A stretch of DNA of 64,000 bases from an uncultured Chloroflexia bacterium (GCA_963790955.1 CAWBQM010000001.1:262285-326284), one strand, 5' to 3'; counted from the first letter of the stretch, positions 42,404-64,000 are shown. Numbers and translations are program-made. Notes: generated by a model not told the origin, from the letters alone.

Positions 42404-42411
42404 AGGGACTC

Positions 42412-42452
42412 CGGTAATAGTCAGCAGTATTACCGTGGGCGGTAAAATGTCA
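42412..42452 (-). promoter_or_regulatory. Fic promoter/operator
   Basis: Perfect dyad cggtaata-N8-tattaccg (42412-42435) next to TTGACA (minus strand, 42447-42452). Confidence 0.6.
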
Positions 42453-42534
42453 AGGTATTGCCGCGTCAGAGCGCTCATCAGCGAAGCGCCCACGGCAATC
42501 AACACAGGGCGGTTCCCGCGTCCGCGCGAGGATT

Positions 42535-43929: not shown

Positions 43930-43972
43930 GGGCTCGCTCGCGGGGTCGCCGGCAGCTGGGGGCCGCGGATCG

Positions 43973-45834: not shown

Positions 45835-45896
45835 GTCGCCGGGAGTATACGGTCGGCCCTGCGCCGCATCGGGACCAACCGACCCTCCGGGTTCGA

Positions 45897-47561
45897 TCAC
45901 GGACATGCGATGTCCCACACGCGGACGTCGGCGATCGCCTCGCGCTCGGTCGCGTCGCTCGGCTGGGGCAGGGCCACGGGCCGGAAGCAGGCGGCCTTGG
46001 CCGTGTCGGTCTGTAGGATCGCGGGCCAGCGGCCTCGCTCGGGCGACAGCAGCACGAGCAGATGGGCGCCGAATCGATCCGCGAGGTCGGCGACGTTCGC
46101 GGGCGGCTCGTTCGGGAGCGCGAGCGCCGGCTGGCGCTCTGCCTCGGCCATCCAGATCGGGAAGTCCGTGATGACCGGCGTCCGACCGTCGAGCGGATGG
46201 CCCGCGTCGGCGAGCGCGGAGCGAAGAACCCGGTATTGCGTCGCCGCCGCCTGCGAACCGCCGCCGAAGCTGGGCAGGAGCGCGACCGAGAACAGCAGCG
46301 AGCCGAAGATCGCCAGTGCCGGCCCGAGCCAGGCGACCGGCCGGGTCCAGCCCCGACGCCGGCCCACCGCGCCGATGAGCCGGTCCAGGGCCAGCAGGCA
46401 GCTCACGACGAGGAGCACGTGCACGGGGCCCGCCGCGTGGAGGAACGTGCCCCACGTCGTCGCGACCGGGAACAGAAGCGTGGTCGCGATGAACGTGACC
46501 AGCGAGAACACGAGCAGCGGCCGGAGCGTGCGCCCGCGGGCCGTCCAGGGCAGCGCCACGAGCCCGATCACGGATACCGGCAGGCCCAGGAACAGGAGCA
46601 CGTTGAGCAGGTTGTGCACGAGGCCGTCGACCCTGCTGCCGACGATGAAGCCCGGACCCTGGGCGAGGTAGCGCGACAGCGTCGGTGGATCGAGGTACGC
46701 GAAGATGTCGAAGCCGGTCACGGACAGCGCGTTCGCGGCGGCCTGACCGGGCAGCGGGCTGCCGAAGACGGCCCAATCGCGCACGGCCCACGGTGCGAAG
46801 ACCGCGACGGCGACGATGCCCGGCACGGCGATGGCGGCGATGCGCCGCCCGACAGACCCGATTCCTCCGCGCAGGGCGGGCGCGGTCCAGGCCACGAACG
46901 CCCATGTCAGGCCAAGCCACGCGGCCTCGTTCCGGGTCAGCGCGGCGAGGCCGATGACGAGACCCAGGCCCAGCAACCGGGGATCGCGGACGGCCGACGC
47001 CGCGGGCGCCCGGGCCACGCGAACCATGAGCAGGCAGGCCGCGAGGGCCAGGACGGCGAACGGCATCGTGGAATCGGGTAGGGCGGACAGGAGCAGGAGC
47101 GGCAGGTACAGGGCCGTCGTCAATCCGGCACCGAGCGCGAGGGTCCGCGCGCGGCCGAGCGACAGGTGAAGCTCGGCGGCCACGTCCGCGGCCAGGCGCC
47201 AGGCGAGGACCGGCACGAGCGCGCCGACGAGGACGCTCTCGATCTGCGCCGCCCGGAAGACACCCGCGAGGTCGTCGTGGCCGAACGGGCCCAGTAGCGC
47301 GATGGGGACCGCGGCCAGCAGGGATGGCAGCGGCAGCCACACCTCGAACGCCGGTCGGGGGAAGACGAGCGGCGGCGTCTGGTAGCTCCACAGCGCGTCG
47401 GACACCAGGCCGCGACCCTCGACGAGGTTGCGCGCCACGCCGACGTAGTACGCGGTGTCCTCGGGTTGCGGGAAGACGATCGCCTGGGCGACCATCGCGC
47501 GCGCGACGAGCGCGACGACGAAGATGGCCACGGCGCTCAGCCAGGCCTCGCGGCGGGTCAT
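45897..47561 (-). CDS. ArnT/PMT-like GT-C membrane glycosyltransferase
   Basis: 'PQPEDTAYYVGVARNLVEGRG', 'WLPLPS', 'LPDSTMPF', 'LTRNEA'; many TM helices. Confidence 0.78.
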   Translation of the reverse strand: MTRREAWLSAVAIFVVALVARAMVAQAIVFPQPEDTAYYVGVARNLVEGRGLVSDALWSYQTPPLVFPRPAFEVWLPLPSLLAAVPIALLGPFGHDDLAGVFRAAQIESVLVGALVPVLAWRLAADVAAELHLSLGRARTLALGAGLTTALYLPLLLLSALPDSTMPFAVLALAACLLMVRVARAPAASAVRDPRLLGLGLVIGLAALTRNEAAWLGLTWAFVAWTAPALRGGIGSVGRRIAAIAVPGIVAVAVFAPWAVRDWAVFGSPLPGQAAANALSVTGFDIFAYLDPPTLSRYLAQGPGFIVGSRVDGLVHNLLNVLLFLGLPVSVIGLVALPWTARGRTLRPLLVFSLVTFIATTLLFPVATTWGTFLHAAGPVHVLLVVSCLLALDRLIGAVGRRRGWTRPVAWLGPALAIFGSLLFSVALLPSFGGGSQAAATQYRVLRSALADAGHPLDGRTPVITDFPIWMAEAERQPALALPNEPPANVADLADRFGAHLLVLLSPERGRWPAILQTDTAKAACFRPVALPQPSDATEREAIADVRVWDIACP

Positions 47562-49220
47562 GGGCTCGACGCCGAGGACGCCGTGCAGCGGGCGTCGTCG
47601 GACGAGATGCAGACCGGATAGAGGCCGACCCGCACGGCCGAGGCCGATGCACCGGTCTCCGGGTCGACCGGCTCGGCCCAGACCGGCGGCCCGATCCACG
47701 CCGGCCGATCGCCGTCGAGCACCGGCCCGACTGCCGGCACGCCGTCGTCGCGCTCGAGGACGAGCCAGCGGATGTCGTACGCGCGCGACGACCTGCTCGA
47801 TCGTGTCGAGCGGATCGTTCACGAGCACCACGCCCGGATGGCCGGTCCAGTATTTCGTGCCCGACGCGTCGATCGACATCACGCGCTCGTCCGGCGCGGC
47901 ACCGGCGGCGCCGAGCGCGGCCGCCACGGACTCGAAGCGATCGCGCGTGGCCGACCACGTCGCATGGACCGACAGCGTGGCGGCAACGGCGACCGCGGCA
48001 AGGAACGCGATCGTGCCCCCGGCAAACGCGCGCCCGGCCTGGTCGGCCTGCCACGTCCGCCGGCGGGCCGCGATCCAGGCGGTGGCCGCGAACACGCCCT
48101 CCAGGCCCAGCACGTAGCCGTGCGGCGCGAGGGCGACCGCCGAATGGATGAACGTGCCGCCCGGGACGTGGACCGCGGAAACGATCGCCGAGAACGCGAA
48201 CAGGATGACCGCGTACGTGAGATACGGTCCGAAGTCGCGCGAGCGTCGCCGACGCCACGCCCCGATGAGCATGAACGGCACGAGGACGACGCCGCCGACG
48301 AGCACGGAGAAGATGACGATCGCCGAGACGAGGCCGTCGACCCGGCTCGCGAGCAGCGGGCCGATGCCCTGGCCCAGCAGCCAGTCGAGGTTGGCCGGCG
48401 TGGAGATGCTGTTCCATTCGCCGATGTTGCGGATGAAGAGGACCTTGCCCGAGGCGGTCGACGGGCTGAGCGAGCCGAACACGGACAGCTGCCGGGCGAA
48501 CCACGGCGAGACAACGACGAGCGAACAGCGCCGGCGCAGGCGACCGCGCTCCAGAGCGGGATGGCCGGCCGCCGACCGCCACCGGAGCGCCACGCATGCC
48601 AGCGATCCCACACGAACGTCAGCCCCAGCACGCCACCGACGAGCACGCCGTCGTTGCGCGACAGGGTCGCCAGGCCCACGAGGAGCCCGGCCACGGCAAA
48701 GCCCCGCGCGTCGCCCCGCAGCCCGCGGGCGCCCAGCCACAGCGCGGCCGCCACGAGCGGCTCGTACAGCCCGAAGTTGTCCGGCTGGGACAGGAACGGC
48801 GTGACCGCGGCCGGGATCGCCGCGAGGATGCCCGCGCCGACGGCCACGAACGGCCGCGCACCCGCGTCGCGGCCGATCGCCCAGGCCAGGGGTGCCACGA
48901 GGGCACCGCTCAGCGCGAACGGCAGATCCGCGATCAGCTGGCTGCCGCCGGAGATCGCCAGGAACGGCACCTGGATGATCGACGCCAGGGGCATCCAGTG
49001 CGCGTTCGAGGGAATCGGCAGGACCGGGTTCGGCGGGGATCCGGCCGCCGACCTCGGCGAAGATCCAGACCAGATCGATGTTGAAGCCGTGGCCGGCCTG
49101 GAGCGATCGCGCGACGTCGGCGTAGTAGAAGGAATCGGGGTAGGCCGGGTCCGGGAAGTGGGCGGCCACGACGACCCGGACGACGAGGGCGAGCCCGTAC
49201 AAGAGCAGCGGGGTCCACAC
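47558..49220 (-). CDS. ArnT/PMT-like GT-C glycosyltransferase, paralogue of the downstream gene; frameshifted
   Basis: 'PAYPDSFYYADVARSLQAGHG', 'WMPLAS', 'QPDNFG', 'LSRNDG'; ATGA overlap with the next gene. Confidence 0.78.
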
Positions 49221-49332
49221 GGCCGGTGCAGGGTAGCACCGCCCTTGCACCACTCCGACCGGTACGGACGGGCTACCCGGCTAGTCCCACCCGCGGCCTG
49301 CGGGCCGCCCCGGGCGCACGTAGCATGCGGTC

Positions 49333-50211
49333 ATGGGCCCTGCCGAAACCGTCAGCCCGGCCGTGGCGCGCCGGCCCTCGCCGCTGGCGCGCTCGGTGCG
49401 CGACGGGCTGGGTGTCGCCGGGCTGCTCTTTGCCGGGTATCTGTTCGCGATCGTCGCACCCGTGGCCGGTTCGTTCGGCTTCGACGCGTTCGCGTACTGG
49501 TCGCTCGATCCGTCGCAGCCCTATGCCCGGACCGCAGGCGCCCTGGGTGCGTTCACGTACTCGCCGGTCATCGCCCGCCTGTTCAGCCCGTTCTCGGCGC
49601 TCTCGTGGCCGGCGTTCCTGTGGCTGTGGACGGCCGTCCTGCTGGCGACCGCGATCTGGCTCGGCTGGCGTCACGCCCTGTTCGTGCTCGCCTTCCCGCC
49701 GGTCGCCCTCGAGCTGTACCACGGCAACGTCCACCTGCTCATGGCCGCCGCGATCGCGCTCGGCTTCCGCTACCCCGCGACGTGGGCCTTCGTCCTGCTC
49801 ACGAAGATCACGCCCGGCGTCGGGCTGGTGTGGTTTGCGGTCAGGGGCGAGTGGCGGCGGTTGGCGATCGCGCTGGCGGTGACCGCGGTCCTCGTCGCCA
49901 TCTCGGTCGCGGTCGACGCGGGGCTGTGGCGGGAGTGGATCACGGACAGCCTCGGCGCCACGGCGGGCGGCGCCCCGCTCAACCAGTTCTCTCTGCCGAT
50001 CCCGCTCTGGATCCGCGTCCCGCTCGCCGCCCTGCTCGTGGCCTGGGGCGGGCGGACGGATCGGCCGTGGACGGTGCCGGTGGCGGCCACCCTCGCGCTG
50101 CCGATCCTGTGGCCGACGGGCCTTGCCGTGCTCGCCGCGTTGTGGCCGATCTACCAGCGCCGCCGTGGGCTGACCGACGCCGCGACCCTCGGCCTGACCC
50201 CCACGCCGTAG
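49333..50211 (+). CDS. GT87-like (DUF2029) GT-C glycosyltransferase
   Basis: 'FDAFAYW', 'FTYSP', 'LYHGNVHL', 'TKITPG'. Confidence 0.8.
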   Translation: MGPAETVSPAVARRPSPLARSVRDGLGVAGLLFAGYLFAIVAPVAGSFGFDAFAYWSLDPSQPYARTAGALGAFTYSPVIARLFSPFSALSWPAFLWLWTAVLLATAIWLGWRHALFVLAFPPVALELYHGNVHLLMAAAIALGFRYPATWAFVLLTKITPGVGLVWFAVRGEWRRLAIALAVTAVLVAISVAVDAGLWREWITDSLGATAGGAPLNQFSLPIPLWIRVPLAALLVAWGGRTDRPWTVPVAATLALPILWPTGLAVLAALWPIYQRRRGLTDAATLGLTPTP

Positions 50212-51336
50212 CCGGGCCCCGGCTCCATCGTCTTCGCCCAGCCGAGCTCGCCTGCCACGAAGCCCCCGGCCACGATCGCGATCCCGATCCAGAAGCCGGC
50301 CTCCGTGTACGTCGAGACGAAGAACGCGGCGAGCAGGGCCAGCTCGCGACGGATTGCGAGCGCCGCGGGCAGCATGAACAGCAACCCGAACGTGTGCAGG
50401 GACGGCGCCCCGAGCACCGACACGAGCCCGACCCACCAGCCCGCCCGAGCGCGCGGCACGAAGGCCAGGGCCAGGATCGACGCCGCGGTGATCGCCAGGC
50501 CGATCGGCTGGCCGACGTAGCGGCCGAGGCTGATGCCGGCCAGCGCCCAGGTCGGGTCGGCCGCCCGGCGGGCCTGGTCGAGCCAGTCGCTCCAGATCCC
50601 GACGCCGGTCAACGGCAGGGTCAGCAGGAGCAACACGCCGATGATCACCGGCGCCGATCAGCGCCGAGCGCCTGCGGTGGAGCGCGAGCCACGCCCAGGG
50701 ATGGAGCTGCGACACCTTGAGCGTGGCGATGAGCGCGCTGAGGACGCCCTCGCGGGTCTCGTCGGACAGGCTCGACAGCGACGGCTGGGCCCGGGGCCGG
50801 AGGTCCGAGCCGCCCGCGCCGGCCCTGAAGAAGACCGCGACGTACGCGGCGAACAGGAGCACCTGCACGTTTCCGCCCACGATGCCTTCCGCGAAGGGCG
50901 GCCAGATGACCAGGGCCGGAACCAGCCACCACGGAGCTCGCAGCCGCCGGCAGGTCCAGATCGCCGCGATCAGGCACAGGCCGCACCAGGCCAGGAGCAG
51001 CGGCGTCCTGGGCAATGCCAGGAGCGGTGTCAGGATCGGGAGGAGTGCCGGCGGGTAGAGGTACGGCAGGTCCGGCCCGGCCGGCGCGCTGAAGCTCTGG
51101 GCGAGATACGGCTGACCGCCGTGCAGCCAGCGGTCTGCAGCCCGGAGCGGGATCTCCAGGTCCACGCCGGGCACGCGAAACGCGTCGACGAGCTCGACGA
51201 CCGCGACCGCGGTCATGCCCAGCGCCAGGGCCGCGAGCGCCAGACGCAACAGGTTGTTCGGTCCGCTGCCGACCCGGAACGCGGCGCCGAGCGCACCTCC
51301 GGTCGAGGGGCGCTCGAGCCCCGAGACAGACGCCAT
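50151..51336 (-). CDS. GT87-like glycosyltransferase, frameshifted
   Basis: 'VDLEIPLRAA', 'YLYPP', 'GGNVQV', 'LKVSQ'. Confidence 0.78.
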
Positions 51337-52352
51337 CAGGGCGGCGCCGCGCCAGCCGGATCCAGCGCCCACTGCCCGGGACGTCGCTCGATCGGCCCGT
51401 CGATGGCCCGCCACGCCTCGCTCACCGGCGAGCCGCGGCGAGCCCGGAGGATGACCGCGATCCGGATCGCGGCGAAGGCGCCGATGGCGACGGGCAAGAT
51501 GCCGTGCGTCGGCACGGCCAGCAGCGCGGCAAGCAACGGCGAGGCGACCGGCAGTGCCAGGACCGAGTAGTGAAGTTCGCTGCTCGGCCACAGGGCCGGC
51601 ACGACGAGCCACGCGGCGGTCTTGCGATCGAGCAGCGCGAGGACGCCCAGGAGCCCCGCGACCGGAATCAGGAGTGGCGTGCCCCAGGCCGAGTAGCCGC
51701 CCGCGGATTCCGAGGCCAGGCGTGCGGAGATCTCGCCGAATCGGTCGATGTACGCCGACCACAGACCGGGCGCGACGAGCACCGACACGGCGACCACCGC
51801 GAGTCCCACCACGACGCCACGGATCCGGCCGAGCAGGACGAGCGGGACCAGCGCGTACACCTTGAGTCCGACCGCGATCCCGTCCAGGATGGGGTGTGAG
51901 GCGACGAGCAGCGCCATGAGCACGATGCCCGGGTTGCCACTCCACGTTCCTTCGAGCAGGGGCGGGAACATGAGCCACCATATCGGCAGGCCCAGGCGGC
52001 GCACGATGAAGATCGCCGAGGCCGCGCCCAGGAGCAGCCACGCCCCGACGAACGCCGCCTCGGGCAGGAGCGTCGCGGGGGCCATCAGCACGGTCGTGGT
52101 CGGCAGACCGGCGTAGTGGTAGTAGTTGGTGCCGTACGACACGTCGTAGCTCGCCACCGCGCTCCACGGGTCACCCCCGGCGAGCCACGCGGCGACACCC
52201 CGGTAGTAGATCCGCGCGTCGACGCCCAGGGCGCCCGGCCCGATGACGAGCGCGAGGTAGCCTGGGCCGAGGATCGCGAACCACACCGGCAGGAGCACGT
52301 TCTCTGCGACTCGACGCATGCGCTCGACGCCGCGCCCGCTCATGGTGACCAT
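51336..52352 (-). CDS. GT87-like glycosyltransferase
   Basis: 'VDARIYYRG', 'YAGLP', 'SGNPG', 'LKVYA'. Confidence 0.75.
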   Translation of the reverse strand: MVTMSGRGVERMRRVAENVLLPVWFAILGPGYLALVIGPGALGVDARIYYRGVAAWLAGGDPWSAVASYDVSYGTNYYHYAGLPTTTVLMAPATLLPEAAFVGAWLLLGAASAIFIVRRLGLPIWWLMFPPLLEGTWSGNPGIVLMALLVASHPILDGIAVGLKVYALVPLVLLGRIRGVVVGLAVVAVSVLVAPGLWSAYIDRFGEISARLASESAGGYSAWGTPLLIPVAGLLGVLALLDRKTAAWLVVPALWPSSELHYSVLALPVASPLLAALLAVPTHGILPVAIGAFAAIRIAVILRARRGSPVSEAWRAIDGPIERRPGQWALDPAGAAPP

Positions 52353-52442
52353 GCGCACCGGAGGGTACGCGCCCGGCGCGGCAGCGATCCACTGGGTCGA
52401 AGGTCCTAGAGACGCGTTCAGCGGAGCGACTAGCATGCCCGC

Positions 52443-53504
52443 GTGCTCGACGATGCTGTGGACGGCCTGACCGTGGCCGCGCCCGCGCGCTCGCCGGCCG
52501 GGAACGTACGCGTCGTGGCCGGCAGCTCCGCGCGCCGCCGGCAGGGCCTGCTGGCGGTCGCCATGGCGTCGGCCATCGTCGGCGTTTCGGTCGGGATCGC
52601 GATCGCGCCCGATGCGTGGACCGTCGACGCCCAGCGCAACCTCGCGGCCGCCCGCGCGCTCGTCGCCGGCGCGTTCGGCTCGGACCACGGCTACGTGTAC
52701 TCGCCGGCCGCGGCCGCGCTCACCGTTCCGTGGACGTGGCTGCCCGAGAGCGTGGCGATCGGCCTGTGGCTGGTCGTGCGAGCCATGGTGCTCGGGATCG
52801 GGGTCCTGCTCGCGACGCGCGGCTGGCCGCCGCTGGACAGGCTGCTGGCCGGCATCGCGGTCGTCTCCTTCGTGCCGGTCCTGTACGACCTCATGCTCGG
52901 CAACGTCTCGATCCTGCTCGCGGCCGCCGTGGCGCTCGTGGCCTGGCGGCGCGACGGTTGGTGGAGCGGCATCCTGCTGGGTGTCGCGCTCGCGACGATC
53001 CCCAAGCCGCAACTGGCGCCGGTGCTGCTCTGGATGCTCGTGTACCGGCCGCGCAGCCTCCTCTCGAGTGCCGCGACGGCCGGCGCGGTCACCCTCGTCG
53101 GGCTGGCGCTCCTCGGGTCGGGTCCGTACGCGGCGTGGATCGGCGTGCTTCGGTCGGTGGACTATCTGTCGAGCCCGATGTACGGCAACCTCTCACTGCT
53201 CGCCTTCGTGCCGGGCGGGCTGGGCCTGGTCATCGCCGCCGTGGCGTGCCTCGCGACCCTGGCCGCGCTGGCGCGCGGTTCGCTACCGGGCCTCGTCGCG
53301 TGCCTCGCGCTGGGCATGCTCGTGGCCCCGTACACGCTCGCCTATGCGCCGGTGCTGCTGCTCGTCGTGGCCCGCCAGCTCGCCGAGCGGCGTCCGGCAG
53401 AGAGCCTCGTGCTGGCCCTGAGCACGTCCATCGGCGTGATCGTGGCCCTGCCCGTGTGGCTGGCGGGCGTGCTCGTGACCGCGCTTCGCCTTCGGGCCGG
53501 TTAG
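52443..53504 (+). CDS. GT87-like glycosyltransferase
   Basis: 'VDAQRN', 'YVYSP', 'LGNVS', 'IPKPQ'. Confidence 0.75.
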   Translation: MLDDAVDGLTVAAPARSPAGNVRVVAGSSARRRQGLLAVAMASAIVGVSVGIAIAPDAWTVDAQRNLAAARALVAGAFGSDHGYVYSPAAAALTVPWTWLPESVAIGLWLVVRAMVLGIGVLLATRGWPPLDRLLAGIAVVSFVPVLYDLMLGNVSILLAAAVALVAWRRDGWWSGILLGVALATIPKPQLAPVLLWMLVYRPRSLLSSAATAGAVTLVGLALLGSGPYAAWIGVLRSVDYLSSPMYGNLSLLAFVPGGLGLVIAAVACLATLAALARGSLPGLVACLALGMLVAPYTLAYAPVLLLVVARQLAERRPAESLVLALSTSIGVIVALPVWLAGVLVTALRLRAG

Positions 53505-53606
53505 GACTATCTGGGGAGCCACGGCCTTGCTCGTCGCGCTCACAATGCTCGGTGCGGTCCGGCACCACCCGCAGCCCGCCCAGGAGGGAGACCCACGAAC
53601 CGGTCG

Positions 53607-54423
53607 TTGACGATCGTCCTGCCCGCGTACAACGAGGCCGAGCGGATCGGTCCCGCGCTCGACGAGCTGTTCGGCTACCTGCGCCGGCGCGGCCAGGCCG
53701 CCCGCGAAGGGGAGCGCGGCGCCGCGTTCCTGCCCGAGGAGATCGACGTGCTCGTCGTGGACGACGGCAGCACGGACGCCGACCCTGGCCCTCGTGCAGG
53801 CCCGACTGGAAGCGCTCGAGGATCCCGCCATCCACGGCGGCCGCCTGCACGCGATGAGCGTGGCCCACGGGGGCAAGGGCGCCGCGGTGCGTGCGGGCAT
53901 GGTCGAGGCGACCGGCGAGATCGTGGTCTTCGCCGATGCGGACATGGCCACCCCGCCGGACGAGCTCGTGCCGCTCGTGGACGCCCTGACCAGCGCCGAC
54001 GTGGCGCTCGGCAGTCGCATCCAGCCCGACGGCTCGGACATGCGCAAGACCCAGCCCGCGTATCGGCGCCTGCTCGGGCGCGCGTTCCACGCCCTCGCGT
54101 CGGTGTGGGTCGTGGGCCCGGTCAAGGACACCCAGTGCGGGTTCAAGGGCTTCCGCCGTGAGGCCGCGCACGACCTGTTCGCGCGCCAGCTCATCGAGAG
54201 CATCGTGTTCGACGTCGAGATCATCTACCTGGCCCGCCGCCGCGGCTACCGGATCGCCGTCGTGCCGATCACCTGGCTCGATCGGGCCGGCTCGCGCATG
54301 CGGCCTCGACCGTCGCTCGCCCTGCGCGTCGCGTGGGACCTGTTCCGGATCCCGTTCCTGCATCGCCGCGTCGAGCGGCACACCGCCACGGCCAGTGTCG
54401 ACCCGGGTCCAGGCGGTTCCTAG
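53607..54423 (+). CDS. GT2 polyprenol-phosphate hexose synthase (DPM/DPG synthase-like), frameshifted; start approximate
   Basis: 'LPAYNEAERI', 'VVDDGSTD', 'GKGAAVRAG', 'FADADMAT', 'DTQCGFKGF', 'FDVE'. Confidence 0.85.
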
Positions 54424-55525
54424 GACCGGGACGATCCCGGGCGGCCTGCTCCTGCCCATCGTGGCGCTGGGCGTGTTCGCGCTGTTCGTGGGCGCCACGC
54501 TGGCGGTTGCGGGCGACACGCTGGGCTACGACTTCCTCGCCTACCGCGCCGCGGCCGACCGGATCCTCCACGGGCAAGCGCTATACGACACCTCGTACAC
54601 CGCGGCCGGCGGTTTCGGGCTGTTCTACTACCCACCGCCGTTCGTGCTGCTCGCGCTGCCGTTCGCGCTGCTGCCGGCGAGCGCGGCCACGTGGCTGTGG
54701 ATCGGCGTGCTCGGCGCCTGCATGGCGCTCGGAACCGCCGTCCTGCCCGTTTCCCGTTCCGTGCGCTGGACGATCGTCCTCCTGGCCGGCCTGTCGTGGC
54801 CCGTCGCGTACGCGTTCAAGCTCGGGCAGGTCGGCCCGATCCTGTACCTGGCCTTCGCCGTCGGCTGGCGGTGGCTGGACCGGCCGGGACCGCTCGGGCT
54901 CTCGGCCGCGGTGGGCACGATCATCAAGCTCCAGCCCGGGATCGTCATCGCGTGGTGCGCGATCGTCGGCCGCTGGCGTGCGGTGGCGGTCGCGGTCGTC
55001 GCGCTCGCCGTCGCGGCCGTGCTGGCCACCCTGGCCGCGGGTTTCGGCGCCTGGACCGACTACGTGTCCCTGCTCCGGGGTCTGGCCGACCCGATCACGA
55101 CCGACCACAACTTCACGCCCGGCGCGATCGCCTTCCAGGCCGGCATACCGGCCGCGCAGGCCGCGCTCGTCCAGCTGGTGTCGTCCGTCGGGGTCGTCGC
55201 GCTCGTGCTGGCCGGTATCCGCTGGGCGCGACCCGAGGCGTCGTATCTGTCGCTCATCCCCGCCAGCCAGCTGATCTCGCCGGTGCTGTGGGATCACTAC
55301 GCCCTGCTGCTGCTCATCCCGGTGGCGTGGCTCCTGGGCCGGCGCCAGTGGTGGGCCGCGCTGGTGCCCCTGGCCACGATCACGCCGCTGGTCGGGATCA
55401 CGCCGCCGGTGGCCTACCCGGCCGCCTTCGCGGTGACCCTCGTCGGCGTCCTGATCGTGGGTCTGCGAACCGACCCGAGCGGCGAGGCTGTCGCGGCGGC
55501 GACGGAGAGCGCTCGATGGAGCTGA
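54395..55525 (+). CDS. GT87-like glycosyltransferase
   Basis: 'YDFLAYRAAA', 'FYYPPP', 'LGQVG', 'IKLQP', 'WDHY'. Confidence 0.82.
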   Translation: MSTRVQAVPRTGTIPGGLLLPIVALGVFALFVGATLAVAGDTLGYDFLAYRAAADRILHGQALYDTSYTAAGGFGLFYYPPPFVLLALPFALLPASAATWLWIGVLGACMALGTAVLPVSRSVRWTIVLLAGLSWPVAYAFKLGQVGPILYLAFAVGWRWLDRPGPLGLSAAVGTIIKLQPGIVIAWCAIVGRWRAVAVAVVALAVAAVLATLAAGFGAWTDYVSLLRGLADPITTDHNFTPGAIAFQAGIPAAQAALVQLVSSVGVVALVLAGIRWARPEASYLSLIPASQLISPVLWDHYALLLLIPVAWLLGRRQWWAALVPLATITPLVGITPPVAYPAAFAVTLVGVLIVGLRTDPSGEAVAAATESARWS

Positions 55526-56430
55526 AGAGCGTCAGCCGGCCCGCCGGCGGGCTGCCACCTGCGCTCTCGAGCCGGCTCGCCGTCCTCACCCGACCGATCG
55601 ACATCGGTGAGCGCACGCTGCCGCCGCTCGGGATCACCGTGCTGGCCGCGATCGGTTCAGTGCTGCTCATCGTGGACGCGTTCTATCGCTGGGCCACGCC
55701 GAGCGACGAGCACGCGTACTGGCTGGCGGCGCAGCGGCTGCTCAGCGGCGCCCCGCTGTACGACCCGACCGCGACACCGGTCACGCCGTACGCGTACTGG
55801 TATCCGCCGATCGTCGCCCAGGTGCTCACGCCGATCGCGGCCGCCTTGCCGTCGCTCGTCTTCACCGCCGCCTGGACCATCGTGCTCCTGCTGTGCCTGT
55901 TCTGGCTGGCCGACCGGAACGTGCTCATGGCGCTTGCCCTCGTCGCCTTCCCACCGGTCGCCGTGGAGCTCTGGTTCCGGAACATCCACCTCATCCTGGC
56001 GGTGCTCCTCGTGCTCGCGATCGAGCGTCGAGGCGAGGTGTTCGCCATCGGCGCGGCGATCAAGATCTCGCCCGGATTGGGCATCCCGTGGCTGGCCGCC
56101 GCCGGTCGCTGGCGGGCGGCCGCGGTGGCATCGGTCGTGGGCCTGGTGCTTCTCGTGGCGAGCGTCGCCATCTCGCCCGACGCGTGGCGTCAGTTCCTCG
56201 ACGTCGTCGGCGCCCGCGGACCGGGTGACGTGTCGGGCTTCCTGCCGATCCCGTACGCCGTGCGCGCCGCGGCCGGTCTCGTCCTCGCGATCGTCGCCGG
56301 CCGGCTGTCCGGCCGCGCCTCCGGGATCCTGCTCGTCCTTGCGGTCACGATCGCGCTCCCGACGCTGTGGTTCACGGCCCTCAGCACGCTCGTGGCGATC
56401 GTTCCGCTCGCCCGACGAGCCGAACCATGA
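55516..56430 (+). CDS. GT87-like glycosyltransferase
   Basis: 'SDEHAYWLAA', 'YWYPP', 'FRNIH', 'IKISP'. Confidence 0.8.
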   Translation: MELKSVSRPAGGLPPALSSRLAVLTRPIDIGERTLPPLGITVLAAIGSVLLIVDAFYRWATPSDEHAYWLAAQRLLSGAPLYDPTATPVTPYAYWYPPIVAQVLTPIAAALPSLVFTAAWTIVLLLCLFWLADRNVLMALALVAFPPVAVELWFRNIHLILAVLLVLAIERRGEVFAIGAAIKISPGLGIPWLAAAGRWRAAAVASVVGLVLLVASVAISPDAWRQFLDVVGARGPGDVSGFLPIPYAVRAAAGLVLAIVAGRLSGRASGILLVLAVTIALPTLWFTALSTLVAIVPLARRAEP

Positions 56431-56453
56431 GCTCGAGGTCCGAGGGGCTATCC

Positions 56454-57589
56454 ATGGACGCCACGACGTCGCCCTCCGGACGGGCGATGGGCGTCGCGAC
56501 GGCGATCGTCCGGCGCTATGGCGTGGTCGCGGCGGCGTTCGGTCTGTCGCGGCTGCTCATCCTGGCCGCAGCGGCCCTGGCCGAGGCATGGCCCGGCCGA
56601 AATCCGGCCCTGACCAGCGGCTCGAGCGGGCCGCTGCTCACGAGCCTGACCAGCTGGGACGGCTGGTGGTACCTCGGGATCGCACGCGACGGCTACCACG
56701 CGGCGGCCGTGACCGGCCCCTATCACGACTACGCCTTCCTGCCGCTCTACCCGGCGCTCGTCCGTGTGCTGTCGCTGCCGTGGCCGGCCTTCGATGGGCT
56801 GGTCGCGGTGATCCTCTCCAACGTCCTGTTCCTCGTCGCCCTCGTTCTCCTGGTCGAGCTCGGCGAGCCGTACCTCGGACGGGAGCGCTCGGAGCGGGCG
56901 GCCGTGCTGCTCTCGTTCGCGCCGTTCGGCGCCGTGTTCGGCATGGCCTACGCGGAGAGCCTGTTCCTCGTGCTGTCCATCGGAGCGTTCCTTGCGGTCG
57001 AGCGCCGAAGGCTCGCGCTCGCGGGCGCGCTGGTCGCCCTGGCCGCGCTCGACCGGTTGCAGGGCGCCCTGCTGATCCTGCCGCTGGCCATCCTCGCCAG
57101 CCAGCGCATGGGACGCCCGACCATCCAGCTTGCCTGGCTCCTCCTGGGGCCGCTGGCCGCGCTCGGTTTCGTGGCGTACGTGGGCGCACTCACCGGCACG
57201 CCGGGCGGCTTCTCGGGCGCGCAGGCCGGCTGGGGCCGCGCGGGCATCGAGCGGCGGACGCCTCGCAGAGTCTCGGTTCCAACCTCACGCCGCAAAACCT
57301 GGTCGCGCTCGTCACCCTGTGCGTTGCCTTGTTCCTGCTGCTCAGTCTCGGTCGGCGCAGTCGGCTGCCTGTCGCCTACCTGCTCGTGCCGGTCCTGTAC
57401 CTGGCGTCGGTGTTCTTCAGCGGCATCCTGGAATTGGTCGGGAGATATGCGGTGGTGGCGTTCCCGCTGGCCTGGCTGCTGGTCGAGCGGTCCCGGAACG
57501 GCGACCGATGGCGAATGGTCGGCGCCCTCGCCGCACTCGGCCTTGCGTTGACCGCCGGCGCTTCGTTTGCCGGGCAGCTCGTCCCGTGA
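56454..57589 (+). CDS. PIG-V/GT76-like mannosyltransferase, frameshifted
   Basis: 'SWDGWWYLGIARDGY', 'AFLPLYP', 'YAESLF'. Confidence 0.82.
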
Positions 57590-57628
57590 GCTCCGCCGCG
57601 GCTGGGGGCCGCGCGTAGGATGGCGCCC

Positions 57629-58165
57629 ATGCAGCCGACCGCGTCGACCTCCTCGAACCGGTATGAGCACCGCCTCGACCGGTTGCGCGAGCATCGAACG
57701 CTGGGACGCCCGGTGAGGTTCTACTTCCGACGGCGGGAGCAGCTGCTGTACCTCGTCGTCGGCGCCTGGAACACCGTCTTCGGCTATGGCGCCTGGGCTG
57801 TCCTGCAGCTCGTCCTCGGCGGCCGCGTGCACTACCTCGCCATCGTGCTGCTGTCGTGGCCGATCGCGGTGCTGAATGCGTATGCCGGATACCGCCTGGT
57901 GGTGTTCCGGAGTCGGGGCTCGATCCTTCGCGAGCTGCCCCGCTTCTCGCTCGTCTACGTGGCGACGCTCGTCGTGAACCTCGCGCTGCTACCCGTCGCT
58001 CTGCAGGTGCTGCCGTTCACGATCTACGTCGATCAGGCGCTCTTCCTTGGGGTCGTCGTGGTCTGCAGCTATCTGGCTCACAAGTACTACAGCTTCGGCG
58101 GCGCGCATCGCAGGGACGCGGCTGTGCCGCGCATCTACGATCCGCATACCGGGACTAAGGACTGA
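57629..58165 (+). CDS. GtrA family putative flippase
   Basis: 'YLVVGAWNTVFGY', 'NAYAGYRLVVFRS', 'SYLAHKYYSF'. Confidence 0.85.
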   Translation: MQPTASTSSNRYEHRLDRLREHRTLGRPVRFYFRRREQLLYLVVGAWNTVFGYGAWAVLQLVLGGRVHYLAIVLLSWPIAVLNAYAGYRLVVFRSRGSILRELPRFSLVYVATLVVNLALLPVALQVLPFTIYVDQALFLGVVVVCSYLAHKYYSFGGAHRRDAAVPRIYDPHTGTKD

Positions 58166-58194
58166 CCGGTGCCCAAGCGTCGAGGGGAAGAGTC

Positions 58195-59295
58195 GTGCCA
58201 CTCCTGACCATCCTTACGCCCTGCTACAACGAGGAAGGCAACGTCCGCGAGGTCTACGAGCGCGTCAAGGCCGCCATGGCGACGCTGCCCGCCTACGACT
58301 ATGACCACCTGTTCATCGACAACGCCTCGACGGACGGGACGGTCCCGATCCTGCGCGAGCTCGCGGCTGGCGATCGGCGCGTGAAGGTCATCGTCAACAC
58401 GCGCAACTTCGGACACATCCGCTCGCCGTATTACGGCTTCCTCCAAGCGCGAGGGGATGCCGTCATGACCTGCGTCGCGGATCTGCAGGACCCGCCTGAG
58501 CTCATCTCCCAGTTCGTGCACAAGTGGGAGGAAGGCTACAAGGTCGTCATCGGCGTCAAGAACGGCAGCCACGAGTCGTGGCTGATGTCGAGGGTCCGAA
58601 GAGCCTACTACTGGCTGGTCGCAAAGCTCTCGTCGGACGTCGAACTCGTTCACAATTTTACTGGGTTTGGGCTATACGACCGCGAGGTGATCGAGCAGTT
58701 TCGCGCCACCGACGAGCAATATCCATACTTTCGTGGCCTTGTTAGCGACTTGGGGTATGAGCGCGCAGAGATTACATACGTTCAACCCGCGCGATCGAGC
58801 GGACGCACGAAGAACAACTTCTTCACCCTGTACGACATGGCGATGCTGGGAGTGACCAGCCATTCGAAGGTTCCCTTGCGCCTTGCGACCATGGCCGGGT
58901 TTGCGCTCTCAGTTCTCGCGTTGTTCGTGGCTGTTGCGTACCTTCTGTTGAAGCTCGCCTGGTGGCAGACCTTCAATCTTGGTCTGGCTCCGTTGGTTGT
59001 TGGCGTGTACTTTCTTGGCGCCGTGCAGTTGTTCTTCATCGGGCTGCTCGGCGAGTACATCGGCTCGATCCACACCCAGGTCCACAGGCGGCCGATCGTG
59101 GTGGAGCGAGAACGCATCAACTTCGAGGAGTTCACGGTGGTGGCCCCTAACCCATCCCGACACCCCTCGCCGGCCTTGCCTTCGAAACGCTATCGGCAAG
59201 GCGCCTTGATTTCCGAGGGGGACTCGAACAACGGCGGAGTGTCCGGGCAAGGCCCCACTCCGTCTTTGGCTCGGTCGCGTCCGCGAACCGAATAG
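58195..59295 (+). CDS. GtrB-like GT2 glycosyltransferase with two C-terminal TM helices
   Basis: 'PCYNEEGN', 'IDNASTD', 'NTRNFGH', 'DLQDPP', 'FRGL', 'GEYIG'. Confidence 0.9.
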   Translation: MPLLTILTPCYNEEGNVREVYERVKAAMATLPAYDYDHLFIDNASTDGTVPILRELAAGDRRVKVIVNTRNFGHIRSPYYGFLQARGDAVMTCVADLQDPPELISQFVHKWEEGYKVVIGVKNGSHESWLMSRVRRAYYWLVAKLSSDVELVHNFTGFGLYDREVIEQFRATDEQYPYFRGLVSDLGYERAEITYVQPARSSGRTKNNFFTLYDMAMLGVTSHSKVPLRLATMAGFALSVLALFVAVAYLLLKLAWWQTFNLGLAPLVVGVYFLGAVQLFFIGLLGEYIGSIHTQVHRRPIVVERERINFEEFTVVAPNPSRHPSPALPSKRYRQGALISEGDSNNGGVSGQGPTPSLARSRPRTE

Positions 59296-59405
59296 CGGCT
59301 CTCGCACGGCAGGCAGCGAATTCTTGCTGGCTGACGTGTCTGGTCATCGTTCTGGCAGGCAATAAGCGGCCAGGTTGCCCAGTCTCTCAAGACGGAGATG
59401 AGTCG

Positions 59406-60362
59406 ATGCGCCTTCCCGCTGGCCTTGGCGCCTGGCTTACAAGGAGACCCGGCTTGATGTTCGTGGTTCTCCGCGTGTACGCACTGGTTCATGGATGCCA
59501 TCTGCTGGCACATGGCGAGTCGATATTGATTAGCAAGGGCGCGCGGACGATGCGCCTCAGTATGGGACATGCTCCCTACGTTCGGGACATCGTGGAGGAG
59601 TTTGAAACGTACTTCGGAGCAGTTGAGTCAGAGCCGGGTCCCGATGGCACTGATGTAGTGGATTGTTCGGGTCGGCGCGAGCATCTCCTTGAGGGCTGGA
59701 ATTTGTTTCCGATCCTGCTCCCTGGCCTTCCTGAACCTATGGTGACGGTCCGCCAATACGTCGCTCTGACTGCGATGTCGTCGGGCGACAACGTGATCGA
59801 TCTTGGCGCCTATGCCGGTGTGACAGCGATGGCTTTTCAAGAGGTCGTTGGACCTTCGGGCCGTGTTGTCGCTGTTGAAGCGGATCCCGAAAACGCGGCG
59901 TGCGCACATGTCAACATCGGGCACTACATCAAGCGTCGCGGGTATGGCCCGACATTGATCAACGCAGCGGTCTGGTCTGCGAGCGGTTCCGTGGATTTCG
60001 TCGCTGAAGGAACCCTCGGATCAGCCGTCGCTCAACTGCTACCGCGTTCACATGCCATCCCGGTGTCGGTCCGCACCCTCACGCTCTCGGAGCTCGTGGT
60101 GATAGCCTCTATGGAGCGTGTTGACATCATCAAGGCGGACATTGAGGGCGCGGAGTTCAAGGCATTTTCCGATGCCTCGTTCTTTGCCACCCGGCACCCG
60201 GTTCTCATCTTCGAGCCAGTCGGTACAACGGTACACGAGACTCAGCTCGAGGCGATCGAGACACTCCTTGCGGGATACGGCTACACCTTCGAGGTCGTCC
60301 GTCAGCATGGGTCGCGGTTGCCCCTTGTAGTGTGCCGGCACCCAACAAGCACTGTCTGTTGA
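59406..60362 (+). CDS. FkbM family methyltransferase
   Basis: 'IDLGAYAG', 'AVEADP', 'KADIEGAE'. Confidence 0.85.
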   Translation: MRLPAGLGAWLTRRPGLMFVVLRVYALVHGCHLLAHGESILISKGARTMRLSMGHAPYVRDIVEEFETYFGAVESEPGPDGTDVVDCSGRREHLLEGWNLFPILLPGLPEPMVTVRQYVALTAMSSGDNVIDLGAYAGVTAMAFQEVVGPSGRVVAVEADPENAACAHVNIGHYIKRRGYGPTLINAAVWSASGSVDFVAEGTLGSAVAQLLPRSHAIPVSVRTLTLSELVVIASMERVDIIKADIEGAEFKAFSDASFFATRHPVLIFEPVGTTVHETQLEAIETLLAGYGYTFEVVRQHGSRLPLVVCRHPTSTVC

Positions 60363-60404
60363 GCAACCACGGACGCGGCAAATCGGCCGAGGCCATCGCA
60401 GCGG

Positions 60405-61617
60405 TCAACCCTTGGGGAATCGCGAGGATGGGTCGGCGGGCATGGCGTACAGCACCGTATCAAAGCCTTCTCCGGCGTGAGGCCGGATGAAGAGTCGATA
60501 GTCTGCTCGCATTTCGTGCACCAGGAGGGGTAGATCCCAGAGATCCGCCTGGTTGTGATACGCCGCAATCGCGAGAAGGGGCTCGCCTTCGCTGATTACA
60601 CGCCTCGATCCCTGTAGGGCGGCAGCCTCTGCCCCCTCGATGTCCATCTTCACTTAACGTCGGGGCGTCGATGGTTACTTCGTCGATCGTGACGCAATCG
60701 ACCTCGTACTGCCCGACGGTCGACAGCTTCGCCGAAGCGAGGCCAGTCGCAGTGAAGTCCGCGGTGCCGCGGCGGTCGGCAGTGGCGGCCCGATGTAGGT
60801 GCACTCGTTGGGCGAGCTCCGGCGGAAGCGACTCTGCGGCCGCCTGTAAGGCGGTAAACGAGGCCGGATCTGGCTCAAACGCATAGTACGTGCGCCATGA
60901 CCCGACGCGATTGGCGATGTCAAGCAGTGTGTCACCGGTGAATGCGCCGCAATCGACGAACACCTCGTCCGGGCCGACGCGGACGACGCCATCGGCGAAG
61001 TACTGGTTCGGCTCTGGATGCGAAAGTGCCGCGAAGTCGGCAGAGAGCCGCCATTCGATCTGACCAACGAACTCGCGGAGTGAGCGGTCATCCGACCAGA
61101 GGTTGGCGGCCCTCAGAACGTCGGCCTGAGCATGGAGAACGCTGGACGGACGGTCGATCGTGATGTATGGCAGTGCATCCGCGCCATATCCCCAGAACAA
61201 CGGAATGAAGGACTCGACCCACCGCCACCCGTGCGCCTGCAGCGCCGCCCGTGTCAGCGAGAAGTCATGCCCGCCCTCCGCGCGCCAGATCGTCACGATG
61301 GCCAATCCATCCGCCGCGAACCGGGAGCTGGCCTCCGAGGGTGACAGGACGGGAACCCGCTCGATGAAGGTCCCCCATAGCCGCTCGTCGTTATCCACGA
61401 AAGCGACTGCGTCTTGTCCGTGGTCACGGAGAAGCTCGAGCGTGCGCCTGCCAAGGTTGCCGGCTCCGAACAGCACGATGGGTAAGCTCGCACGCCCCGC
61501 GATCTCCGCGGCGAGTCTCAATTCGCGTTCGGAGGCCGACGAGGGGGCCTCGGCGAGCAGCTGGCGGAGGCGGTCGGTCAGAGCGCCTCGCGACGCAGTT
61601 CGGCCGGCACTGATCAC
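60405..61617 (-). CDS. FkbM family methyltransferase with N-terminal Rossmann-like extension, frameshifted near 60655
   Basis: 'LFGAGNLG', 'VDCGAFTGDT', 'AFEPDP', then 'KMDIEGAE...AYH..DLW'. Confidence 0.85.
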
Positions 61618-62693
61618 AGCCCGCGCTCCACGATCACGCGCTTCAGGTTGTCATTGTTCGCGTATGGGCTGTCGATGTCGTCAATGCGGATAGCCTCATC
61701 GGCCCGCACGTCCCGCATGAGGACCTCCCCTCGCATGAGTTCCCGACAGGAGATCTGGCCCTTCTGGAGCGGGATTGCAAGATAGACATCTTCATCGCCG
61801 AGGGCATGGCCCGCTGGCAGATCGCGTGACGCGTACACGCCGCGAACGAGCGCATCCAGATACTCGATCTCTCGTTGCGAGCTCACCCTCCATCCCTCGC
61901 CTGGCGCGCCGCACATCTCCTTGGCGTCCTGCCAGGCTTTGAACCACGTGTCTACTTGCTCCGGCAGGGAGCAATATGGCGACACGGGCACGCCAGCGTC
62001 ATCGATGTCGATGTGCCGCTCGAAGGTTCGCGCTCCCTTCGCATACGCGATTGTGATCGACCGAATCCAGTCGCGATATTCATGAGAAGAGAATCCGATC
62101 GTGTGATTCGGATACCGACGACAGAGGAAATCGATCTGGTTTAGCTGCAGATCACTGTTCTCGCTCGGGTATAGTGACACACAGTGGTTGATCGCCAGGG
62201 GGATGTTCCGGTGTTCGAAGAAGGTAACCAGGTCGTCGATATCCTTGAGCGAGCTACCACCTGTGGATACGATGACCGGCTTGCGAGTGGTCGCGATCTT
62301 CTCGATGAGCATCCAGTCATTGCCATCCGAGCTGGCGATCTTGAGGATCTGCACGCCAAGTTCCTGGCATAGGTCGACAGACGCTTCGTCGAATGGGGAG
62401 GCCATCGTCACGCACCCCGCCTTGCGCGTGGCATCCACGAGCGTGCCGTAATCATCCGCGCTCATGCGGGTGTCCATCGTCTTCTTGATGTATCGAATGT
62501 CGGTGCGATCGCGGAAGTCACGGTGGATGAAGCGATCCACATCGCGGAACTGAAGCTTCAGCGCAGCTCGCACATTATTGAACCGTACAACTCGGGAGTA
62601 GGCGGTGATGATCTTGAGGCCTCGCTCCACGCTGCCCCAGTGATTGTTCGCCACCTCGAGAACGAACAGATCTTCGAAGATGTCGCAATTCAC
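61614..62693 (-). CDS. NeuB/SpsE-like ulosonic acid synthase with C-terminal SAF domain
   Basis: 'LEVANNHWG', 'KLQ', 'SPFD', 'KIAS', 'VSTG', 'HCVSLYP', 'GFSSH', 'ERH'. Confidence 0.88.
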   Translation of the reverse strand: MNCDIFEDLFVLEVANNHWGSVERGLKIITAYSRVVRFNNVRAALKLQFRDVDRFIHRDFRDRTDIRYIKKTMDTRMSADDYGTLVDATRKAGCVTMASPFDEASVDLCQELGVQILKIASSDGNDWMLIEKIATTRKPVIVSTGGSSLKDIDDLVTFFEHRNIPLAINHCVSLYPSENSDLQLNQIDFLCRRYPNHTIGFSSHEYRDWIRSITIAYAKGARTFERHIDIDDAGVPVSPYCSLPEQVDTWFKAWQDAKEMCGAPGEGWRVSSQREIEYLDALVRGVYASRDLPAGHALGDEDVYLAIPLQKGQISCRELMRGEVLMRDVRADEAIRIDDIDSPYANNDNLKRVIVERGL

Positions 62694-63379
62694 AGTTTCT
62701 CTCCCCGCGCGCGGCTCAGCACGTAGTCGGTGACGTCCGCGAGACTTGACAGTTCTACCCGGTTCTCGCTTGGGGCCGCATGACCCAGTGGTCCTGCGCC
62801 GGTGGTTACCGCCGCGAAGACGATCCCCCAAGCTGATGCTGCGAGCGCGTCCTGGTCGGAGTCTCCAACGACGACAGTCACCGTGGGATCGAGCCCCCCG
62901 CGCTGAAGACACTGCCCAATCAGGACGGCCTTCTGGGTCGGTTCCGCAGAGTCCGATTGCGCTAGAACGGCCTCGAGCAGGCCGGCAAGTCCGAAGTGCT
63001 CGAGGAGCCACCTGGTCGGCGTCGCTCTCTTGTTCGTGGCGACGAAGGCGCGAATGCCTCCGGCCCTCAGGGCGCGCAGGCATTCATGGGCGCCAGGGTA
63101 GAGCTCGGCTGACCGCCAGTGGTCCAGGTCATAGTGCCTACGGAATGAGGCGGACACTTCGCGACGCTGAACCTCAGATAGCATCGGCCCGAGACGGCCG
63201 ATCATCTCGTCCAAGGGCAGGCTCAGGTTCGCCTCCTCGGCGACAACGGTCCCAACGGCATGCTCCGCAAACGCAGCCGTGATGGCTGCCCGGATGCCGG
63301 GCCTCGTGTCCAGAAGGGTGCCGTCGAGGTCGAAGATTACGGCCTCGAGAAGACCCGACGGTGGTCGCGCCAAGGTCAT
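62690..63379 (-). CDS. HAD-IA hydrolase (phosphatase)
   Basis: 'FDLDGTL', 'ATNK', 'VVGDSDQD'. Confidence 0.87.
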   Translation of the reverse strand: MTLARPPSGLLEAVIFDLDGTLLDTRPGIRAAITAAFAEHAVGTVVAEEANLSLPLDEMIGRLGPMLSEVQRREVSASFRRHYDLDHWRSAELYPGAHECLRALRAGGIRAFVATNKRATPTRWLLEHFGLAGLLEAVLAQSDSAEPTQKAVLIGQCLQRGGLDPTVTVVVGDSDQDALAASAWGIVFAAVTTGAGPLGHAAPSENRVELSSLADVTDYVLSRARGEKL

Positions 63380-64000
63380 GGATCCAGCGGCTCGACTGCT
63401 TCGACCGCGCTTGACGGCATGTTGCGGGCAATCTCCGCAGGCTCCAGGAAGGGGTACATATCCTCCAGGGCTGGCGAGACGATGCTGCCGTCGGCCATGA
63501 CCCGCGACTTGATACGGGGCTCGAACTCCTGCTCAGGATCGAGCAGAACATGGCACACGACGGGCCCGTCGGTTTTGAGCACGCGCGTGATCGTGGCATC
63601 GAGAGAGGCTGGCTCGGTCATTCGCACCGACTGAATCCCATATGCAGACGCGATTGCGCCATGATCCGGAAATGAAACGCCGTCATCGGGCCCCGAGCCA
63701 ATCGTCGCACCGAAGAAGTTCCGCTGAGTGCTGCGGATGGACAGATACCCGCCATTGTCCAGAACAAAGAGTTTCACTGATAGTTGGTGATGGCGCACGG
63801 TCTGCAGTTCCTGGATATTTAGCTGGAGGCTGCCGTCGCCGGCAAGGCAAATCACTCGCCTGCCGTCTCGAGCCACGGCGGCGCCCACGGCCGCCGGCAG
63901 GTCGTAGCCCATGCTCGCTGATCCGGAGTTGGAAATCAGGCGTTGGCCTCGCTGCAGGCCGGCCACCTGAAAGGGCACAATCGTCGCGGTCGCATCGCCG
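63376..64000 (-). CDS. Thiamine pyrophosphate-binding enzyme (acetolactate synthase-like), 5'-truncated by window edge
   Basis: TPP motif 'GDGSLQLNIQEL...LDNGGY', 'SMGYDLPAAVGA'. Confidence 0.88.
   Translation of the reverse strand, partial: GDATATIVPFQVAGLQRGQRLISNSGSASMGYDLPAAVGAAVARDGRRVICLAGDGSLQLNIQELQTVRHHQLSVKLFVLDNGGYLSIRSTQRNFFGATIGSGPDDGVSFPDHGAIASAYGIQSVRMTEPASLDATITRVLKTDGPVVCHVLLDPEQEFEPRIKSRVMADGSIVSPALEDMYPFLEPAEIARNMPSSAVEAVEPLDP

Follow-up and report, generated by a model that had tools for sequence, protein, structure and literature searches.

The subject of this analysis is a dense cluster of genes for glycosyltransferases of the GT-C type in a 64,000-nt stretch of DNA from an uncultured Chloroflexia bacterium (GCA_963790955.1, CAWBQM010000001.1:262285-326284; 'the window' hereafter, to which the coordinates refer). 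An earlier, sequence-only reading had placed six GT87-like genes, one PIG-V-like gene, a GT2 synthase, a GtrA and a GtrB within 49,333-59,295; these genes are lettered A to J here. Pfam searches bear out the inventory and its coordinates, with C borderline (Table 1): PF09594 is above its cut-off (25 bits) for A, B, D, F and G, PF04188 (22.4 bits) for H and PF04138 (26.1 bits) for I. The reading omitted two further GT-C genes lying directly upstream (45,897-49,253), which we denote K1 and K2. The locus (45,897-59,295) thus has nine GT-C genes in 13.4 kb: the six GT87-like, the PIG-V-like, K1 and K2. With a G+C of about 72%, raw lists of open reading frames from the window are full of spurious frames; coding frames were chosen by codon-position G+C and the stop-to-stop translations were then read.

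The 2.44-Mb genome holds 10 GT87 matches in all, six of them within a 6.8-kb part of this locus, where about 0.03 would be expected; the clustering is far beyond chance. D-E-F-G-H-I-J form a tight plus-strand operon whose junctions overlap or span about 30 nt; the start of G overlaps the end of F and the G/H junction is an ATGA overlap. On the other strand, the start of B overlaps the stop of C. A promoter and terminator scan of 45.5-60.6 kb gave nothing exceeding the shuffled expectation.

Table 1. Genes of the GT-C locus and the adjoining two-component system, in window coordinates.
Feature	Coordinates	Strand	Support
Response regulator (LuxR-type)	43973-44719	-	
HisKA_3 kinase	44716 to ~45750	-	
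K2, 543-aa GT-C, ArnT/AglB/AftA-like fold, small C-terminal extracytoplasmic domain	45897-47528	-	AlphaFold model
K1, PMT_2-type GT-C, K2 paralogue	~47530-49253	-	PF13231 37.8 bits on middle piece
A, short (292 aa) GT87-like GT-C	49333-50211	+	PF09594 51.9 bits
B, ~396-aa GT87-like GT-C	51336-50151	-	PF09594 37.5 bits with frames joined; 30.5 bits for N-terminal part
C, 338-aa GT87-like GT-C, weakest family match	52352-51336	-	PF09594 19.7 bits alone; 25.1 bits in six-frame genome scan
D, 353-aa GT87-like GT-C, opens D-to-J operon	52443-53504	+	PF09594 71.3 bits
E, soluble or peripheral GT2, DPMS/Ppm1-like	~53570-54423	+	PF00535 on both pieces
F, core GT87 GT-C, PimE-like, 372-376 aa	54407-55525	+	PF09594 83.8 bits
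G, short (304 aa) GT87-like GT-C	55516-56430	+	PF09594 52.8 bits
H, ~386-aa PIG-V-like (GT76-type) GT-C	56427-57589	+	PF04188 41-42 bits
I, GtrA-family small membrane protein	57620-58165	+	PF04138 54.8 bits, full profile
J, GtrB-type GT2, two C-terminal membrane helices	58195-59295	+	PF00535 92 bits

The AlphaFold model of F (pLDDT 92.2, pTM 0.90) has its best matches in the Protein Data Bank (PDB) to PimE [9DM7/9DM5, TM score 0.68, E = 4e-8], followed by ALG3, PIG-U, PIG-M and ALG6. A profile of F orthologues and window paralogues, searched against all PDB sequences, matched only PimE (E = 1.1e-12). D42, Y46, Y75, Q141, K174, W295 and H297 of F align with D58, Y62, Y92, Q163, K195, W319 and H321 of PimE, residues that include the catalytic base and those holding the polyprenyl phosphate; mutation of D58, Y62, Y92, Q163, K195 or W319 abolishes PimE activity and H321A reduces it (PMC12041525). 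In one of our alignments the catalytic Asp is invariant across 33 sequences, and alignment with a PimE fragment shows that none of the six GT87 paralogues (A, B, C, D, F and G) lacks this first-loop Asp or the Y92 equivalent. The position of Q163 is Q or N in all six. K195 has an equivalent in A, B, C, F and G, and in D a Lys sits two residues off in the alignment. Y62 is matched in A, C, F and G, with Pro in B and Asn in D; W319 is matched in the same four, its position and that of H321 being variable among the paralogues. A retains equivalents of D58, Y62, Y92, K195 and W319, and C, which is 38% identical to B over 119 residues, retains these and H321. On these residues the GT87 paralogues look like active GT-C enzymes dependent on polyprenyl-phosphate sugars; the sequence-only reading had assigned them this nature, and the Asp found in six of six together with the PimE-like fold of the F model upholds it.

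Four of the genes are interrupted in this assembly. B (~50655), E (~53775) and H (~57230) have one frame break each, and K1, read in pieces, has about three (~47600, ~48400, ~49000). Were these breaks the marks of pseudogenes, the cluster would be a decaying array of paralogues, a functionless relic of duplication. The essential gene rpoB, however, is also split in the same assembly, over at least four frames within 3.4 kb (contig C5:31854-35173); the assembly (2.44 Mb, 10 contigs) has a CheckM-type completeness estimate of 53%. In relatives, the orthologues of B, E and H each align in one unbroken segment that spans the break position, the pieces of K1 are 46-70% identical to uninterrupted genes in relatives, and codon-position G+C is strongly coding on both sides of every break. 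Because rpoB is broken too, the orthologues are intact and the codon-position signal is that of coding sequence, the breaks are taken to be assembly indels, and B, E, H and K1 are therefore treated as intact genes. Retention of the catalytic residues also speaks against decay, which we regard as very improbable, and the pseudogene reading of the breaks was rejected on the fragmentation of rpoB and the intact orthologues. Single-base indels are frequent assembly-wide; any call of a pseudogene or broken gene in this genome needs rechecking against relatives.

The two GT2 proteins of the operon resemble synthases of lipid-linked sugars. E has the Pyrococcus furiosus dolichyl-phosphate mannose synthase (DPMS) as its best PDB match (5MLZ, E = 5e-11), has a D-x-D motif within 'FADADM' and gives its best NCBIfam match to dolichyl-phosphate hexose transferase. 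It is 66-70% identical in relatives, and the genome has at least three further E-like GT2 genes. J matches Synechocystis GtrB (sll0501, E = 8e-50) over its full length, membrane helices included, and ArnC (E = 3e-31), as well as the PgfS and ArnC models of NCBIfam. All NCBIfam matches of E and J are below the equivalog cut-offs.

Searches with the sequence of K2 against Pfam and the PDB gave no match. Its AlphaFold model (pLDDT 83.4) is recognized by fold, the top 33 PDB matches all being GT-C, and its first loop has an invariant P-E-D-x-A-Y-Y motif. K2 orthologues in relatives are 57-62% identical; some of them carry PF13231 and they are named 'glycosyltransferase family 39' by NCBI. K2 and its more than 2,300 homologues make up a large, well-conserved GT-C family that Pfam barely recognizes and that has no NCBIfam model. 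K1 is 28-29% identical to K2, and neither has the D-E motif of Pmt in its usual form (E-D in K2, D-S in K1). The PF04188 match of H spans profile positions 51-199 of 443, with weaker, overlapping matches to PMT_2 and GT87; its first loop has a W-D-G-W-W-Y-x-x-I-A motif and its orthologues are 36-56% identical. To our knowledge no activity is known for bacterial members of PF04188.

F has >1400 homologues; NCBI lists the close homologues of F and of K2 under the names 'Candidatus Limnocylindrales bacterium' or 'Chloroflexota bacterium', and the host is an uncultured Limnocylindria bacterium (Chloroflexota) of soil or freshwater. The identity between the GT87 paralogues is at most 38% (tblastn), whereas orthologues in other genera reach 40-70%. 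Single-sequence phmmer comparisons among the paralogues and the PimE fragment detect only the A-G, F-G and A-F pairs, so that a simple tree against PimE is not meaningful; the paralogues are about as distant from one another as from PimE. A is closest to G. Orthologues of A are 37-62% identical, those of G 55-57% and that of B 45-47%. The paralogues are judged from this divergence to be ancient and deeply diverged, and recent tandem duplication was rejected on the same comparison. Deep divergence together with separate orthologues in other genera fits the earlier suggestion that each paralogue adds a different linkage.

Among eight related loci, E and F are adjacent in seven, and the order response regulator, histidine kinase, K2, K1 is found in five. 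The presence of A, B, C, D, G and H differs from locus to locus, and none of the eight has I or J. The locus is thus a family-wide conserved core (the two-component system, K2, K1, E and F) to which GT87 and PIG-V genes are added in varying combination. The E-F pair of some relatives (L001, L004 and L007) is located away from K1-K2 and from the pilin genes. Conservation across the class, a check that the sequence-only reading had proposed, is extensive: GT87 is found in 78 of 81 class genomes, in 3-18 copies (median 11) in the family of this genome and in 0-1 copies in a family of 1.1-Mb genomes. Across the phylum it is found in 119 of 151 Chloroflexota genomes, often clustered. GT87 arrays are a trait of the lineage, standard for the class and widespread in the phylum, and are not peculiar to this genome.

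A second group of glycan genes is located on the same contig 12-24 kb beyond the end of the window (C1:338432-350211). It begins with a GT87 gene (338432-339391) and a PIG-V-like gene (339395 to ~340500) that is 31% identical to H, continues with a FemAB/GNAT-like gene, another large membrane protein and an IS630-type transposase (346134-347246), and ends with a second GT87 gene (347182-348216), an epimerase and an E-like GT2 (349402-350211).

The base composition changes within the operon: up to the I/J junction G+C is about 72%, and exactly there it drops to about 60%, so that J opens the lower-GC block. Since neither I nor J occurs in the eight related loci, the block suggests an acquired, strain-specific sugar module. 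It extends over 58100-64000 of the window and C1:320400-332500 of the contig. Besides the GtrB-like J it contains two genes for FkbM-type methyltransferases, a NeuB-like synthase, a thiamine pyrophosphate enzyme, an epimerase, a DegT-type aminotransferase and genes resembling CDP-glucose 4,6-dehydratase and glucose-1-phosphate cytidylyltransferase.

Gene content, fold, catalytic residues and conservation are shown by the data, and from them a general mechanism can be proposed, in which the donor sugars, the sequence of steps and the acceptor are inferred. At the cytoplasmic face, E and J would load polyprenyl phosphate with sugars from nucleotide sugars; the lipid-linked sugars would then reach the outer face of the membrane, possibly aided by the GtrA protein I. 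There the nine GT-C enzymes (A, B, C, D, F, G, H, K1 and K2) would each transfer one sugar to a growing acceptor, with the first-loop Asp serving as catalytic base as it does in PimE. K1-K2 and E-F would form the conserved core of this pathway. The remaining GT87 and PIG-V genes would be accessory, varying from genus to genus, and probably provide lineage-specific branches or linkages. H-I-J would be a three-part module of the Gtr type joined to the lower-GC sugar-synthesis block. That E and J make lipid-linked sugars and that the nine GT-C enzymes transfer them stepwise outside the membrane we consider highly probable.

The nature of the acceptor is a separate question, and here a second operon on the same contig is relevant. 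About 110 kb upstream of the locus (C1:197300-203100) are, in order, genes for a CDP-alcohol phosphatidyltransferase resembling phosphatidylinositol phosphate (PIP) synthase, Ino1, two PatA-like acyltransferases, a PHP protein and a PimA-like GT4, which together resemble a pathway to phosphatidylinositol mannosides (PIM). The GT4 has Mycobacterium smegmatis PimA as its best PDB match (E = 1e-55, full length), the next match being at 3e-11. The same operon is intact in a well-assembled relative (G008, L010:1646-7400), where the PIP synthase scores 114-123 bits (cut-offs 170-180) and the PIM-acyltransferase/PatA model 129 bits over its full length (cut-off 209); with scores below the equivalog cut-offs, the PIP synthase, Ino1, PatA and PimA genes are candidates only. 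The sequence-only reading had placed the GT-C cluster outside any mycobacterial-type gene context. This stands for the locus itself and fails for the contig, which carries the PIM-type operon.

Adjoining the PIM-type operon is a gene for a giant membrane protein of about 1,850-1,890 residues (C1:203404-211373; L010:7603-14468). It has an N-terminal GT-C (GT87) module and a central soluble (propeller) domain; the motif H-F-D-E-V-Y-H occurs in its PMT-type module. The gene is followed by a GT-C of 526-541 residues and then by another DPMS-like GT2.

The PimA-like gene is single-copy in 79 of the 81 class genomes and in 115 of the 151 phylum genomes, including complete genomes of 1.4-1.9 Mb without GT87. 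The PIM-type operon and the wide distribution of its PimA-like gene fit a PIM lipid as a general membrane component. Cultured Chloroflexota have phosphatidylinositol (PI) among their major lipids (PMC12453558). The literature that we searched contained no report of PIM, lipomannan (LM) or lipoarabinomannan (LAM) from Chloroflexota.

Taken as a whole, the locus is best explained as encoding the extracytoplasmic steps by which a Limnocylindria bacterium makes a surface glycan, an account to which we give about even confidence. The most likely acceptor would be a membrane-anchored glycolipid or lipoglycan, for which the PIM-type operon offers a PI-mannoside anchor; this part of the account is tentative. 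Several observations weigh against the account. C on its own scores below the Pfam threshold, and the Tyr that hydrogen-bonds the catalytic Asp is lacking in D and replaced by Pro in B. The donor sugars of E and J are not readable from their sequences, and the role of GtrA as a flippase is a proposal in the literature, not an established function. The PIM-type operon is 110 kb off and not inside the locus. Among the 151 Chloroflexota genomes GT87 and the PimA-like gene are not associated [both in 91, GT87 only in 28, PimA-like only in 24, neither in 8; odds ratio 1.08, p = 0.82]. A PIM anchor can therefore not be a requirement of every GT87 enzyme in the phylum, and the lack of association lowers our estimate of the PIM-anchor reading. 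Finally, K1 and K2 share their orientation with the genes for the kinase, the regulator and the pilins, and enzymes of the GT39 type are protein glycosyltransferases, which would speak for a protein as acceptor.

This last point leads to a serious rival, which we nevertheless hold to be unlikely: K1-K2 together with some GT87 partners, if not the locus as a whole, may O-glycosylate exported proteins, for example the Flp/Tad pilins encoded nearby, an S-layer protein or adhesins. In that case the GT87 paralogues would either extend the glycan or act as partners of the GT39-like enzymes. K1 matches PMT_2, and the NCBI name of the K2 orthologues, as given above, is that of GT39; yet the Pmt D-E motif in its usual form is missing from both proteins. 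K1, K2, the HisKA_3 kinase, the LuxR-type regulator, a kinase-like gene (pseudokinase) and the Flp pilin genes are all on the minus strand (40219-49253), and the K1-K2-kinase-regulator order recurs in five of eight relatives, but the E-F pair is also found away from K1-K2 and the pilins, and the mature Flp pilins, about 40 residues long, contain few Ser/Thr. J is similar to PgfS, which belongs to a protein-glycosylation system of streptococci, and the giant fusion of GT87, propeller and PMT modules is encoded on the same contig. In mycobacteria the GT87-like Rv0051 is a partner of Pmt (bioRxiv 10.64898/2026.07.15.738315); Rv0051 is, however, without catalytic residues, whereas six of six paralogues here keep the Asp. 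As an observation in its own right, the co-orientation of K1-K2 and their recurring order hint at a link to the Tad pilus or its regulation.

A second rival, which we rate as somewhat less likely still, takes the acceptor to be in the wall: the GT-C enzymes might build or decorate a peptidoglycan-linked secondary polymer, either arabinogalactan-like or teichoic-acid-like with decoration of the Gtr type. GT87 includes AftC, which branches wall arabinan, and three-part modules of the Gtr type, to which H-I-J corresponds here, decorate wall polymers in Firmicutes. Such a polymer would suit the 28 genomes that have GT87 and no PimA-like gene, and the CDP-sugar, aminotransferase, NeuB-like and methyltransferase genes that come after the operon. 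Mannose and xylose are reported as wall sugars in cultured Chloroflexota (PMC12453558). Against this, translations and Pfam searches of 45.9-59.3 kb revealed no initiating phosphoglycosyltransferase, LCP-type ligase, Wzx/Wzy or ABC exporter.

Returning to the membrane-anchored glycolipid or lipoglycan, a more far-reaching proposal, which we regard as unlikely, is that Limnocylindria and perhaps much of the Chloroflexota may make PI-mannoside-anchored, LM-like lipoglycans, with E-F as the counterpart of Ppm1/PimE and the variable array responsible for species-specific elongation and branching. If this were true, PIM/LM envelope chemistry would not be an actinobacterial speciality, and the variable array would play a role like that of an O-antigen locus for a cell with a single membrane. 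A glycan on a PIM-type anchor would move the origin of PIM/LM-like chemistry outside the Actinomycetota.

The sequence-only reading had suggested an undescribed glycan, and the literature that we searched contained no paper characterizing such arrays in this lineage. The enzyme families and the logic, those of the actinobacterial PIM/LM/LAM pathway and of Gtr systems, are already known; what is new is the setting, a class of uncultured Chloroflexota in which minimal PimE-like enzymes form a variable array beside a conserved core. Soils and lakes are rich in Limnocylindria, of which we know no described cultures. Their roughly 10 GT87 genes per 3-Mb genome, class-wide, are probably a higher density than that of mycobacteria and suggest a major undescribed surface glycoconjugate. 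The small (290-370 residues) and deeply diverged relatives of PimE would also be material for structure-function work on a family relevant to tuberculosis.

Comparison with known systems places the individual genes. H resembles eukaryotic PIG-V [glycosylphosphatidylinositol (GPI) mannosyltransferase II, GT76] in passing the PF04188 cut-off and in the W-D motif of its first loop, and both would use a polyprenyl- or dolichyl-phosphate sugar on the non-cytoplasmic face, possibly on an inositol lipid. The match to H is, however, partial (51-199 of 443), and the genes around it are not those of a GPI pathway. H (GT-C), I (GtrA) and J (GtrB-like), adjacent and co-oriented, recall systems of the Gtr type (GtrA/GtrB/GtrC, CsbB-YfhO and PgfS), but the GT-C partner here is PIG-V-like rather than GtrC or YfhO and the module is part of a larger GT87 operon. 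The Pmt/Rv0051 complex of mycobacteria combines enzymes of the GT39 and GT87 types; here K1 and K2 adjoin GT87 genes and a fusion of the two kinds is encoded on the contig. In that complex Rv0051 is catalytically dead (bioRxiv 10.64898/2026.07.15.738315), and K1 and K2 are not close homologues of Pmt.

F has the GT-C(A) fold of PimE and a similar size (about 370-415 residues). In both, the first juxtamembrane helix has the catalytic Asp at its tip, and F retains the Tyr, Gln, Lys and Trp residues by which PimE holds the polyprenyl phosphate. The identity between the two is only about 20% and H322 of PimE is Tyr in F, with variation among the remaining five paralogues at Y62, W319 and H321. The acceptor of PimE is Ac1PIM4, and mycobacterial GT87 genes are scattered whereas six paralogues are together in one locus here.

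The closest parallel for the system as a whole is the actinobacterial PIM/LM/LAM pathway (PgsA1, Ino1, PatA, PimA; Ppm1; MptA/MptB/MptC, AftC). The Limnocylindria genes differ from it in belonging to another phylum with a single-membrane (monoderm-type) envelope, in matches of the early genes that are below the NCBIfam equivalog cut-offs, and in a PIM-type operon that is unlinked to the GT-C locus and whose PimA-like gene does not co-occur with GT87 across the phylum. Candidates for PIP synthase, Ino1, PatA and PimA are nevertheless grouped in one operon that is near-universal in the class, and the logic of the two systems would be the same: cytoplasmic GT4 steps on PI, a GT2 that makes polyprenyl-phosphate mannose and then several GT-C enzymes of the GT87 type acting at the outer face of the membrane.

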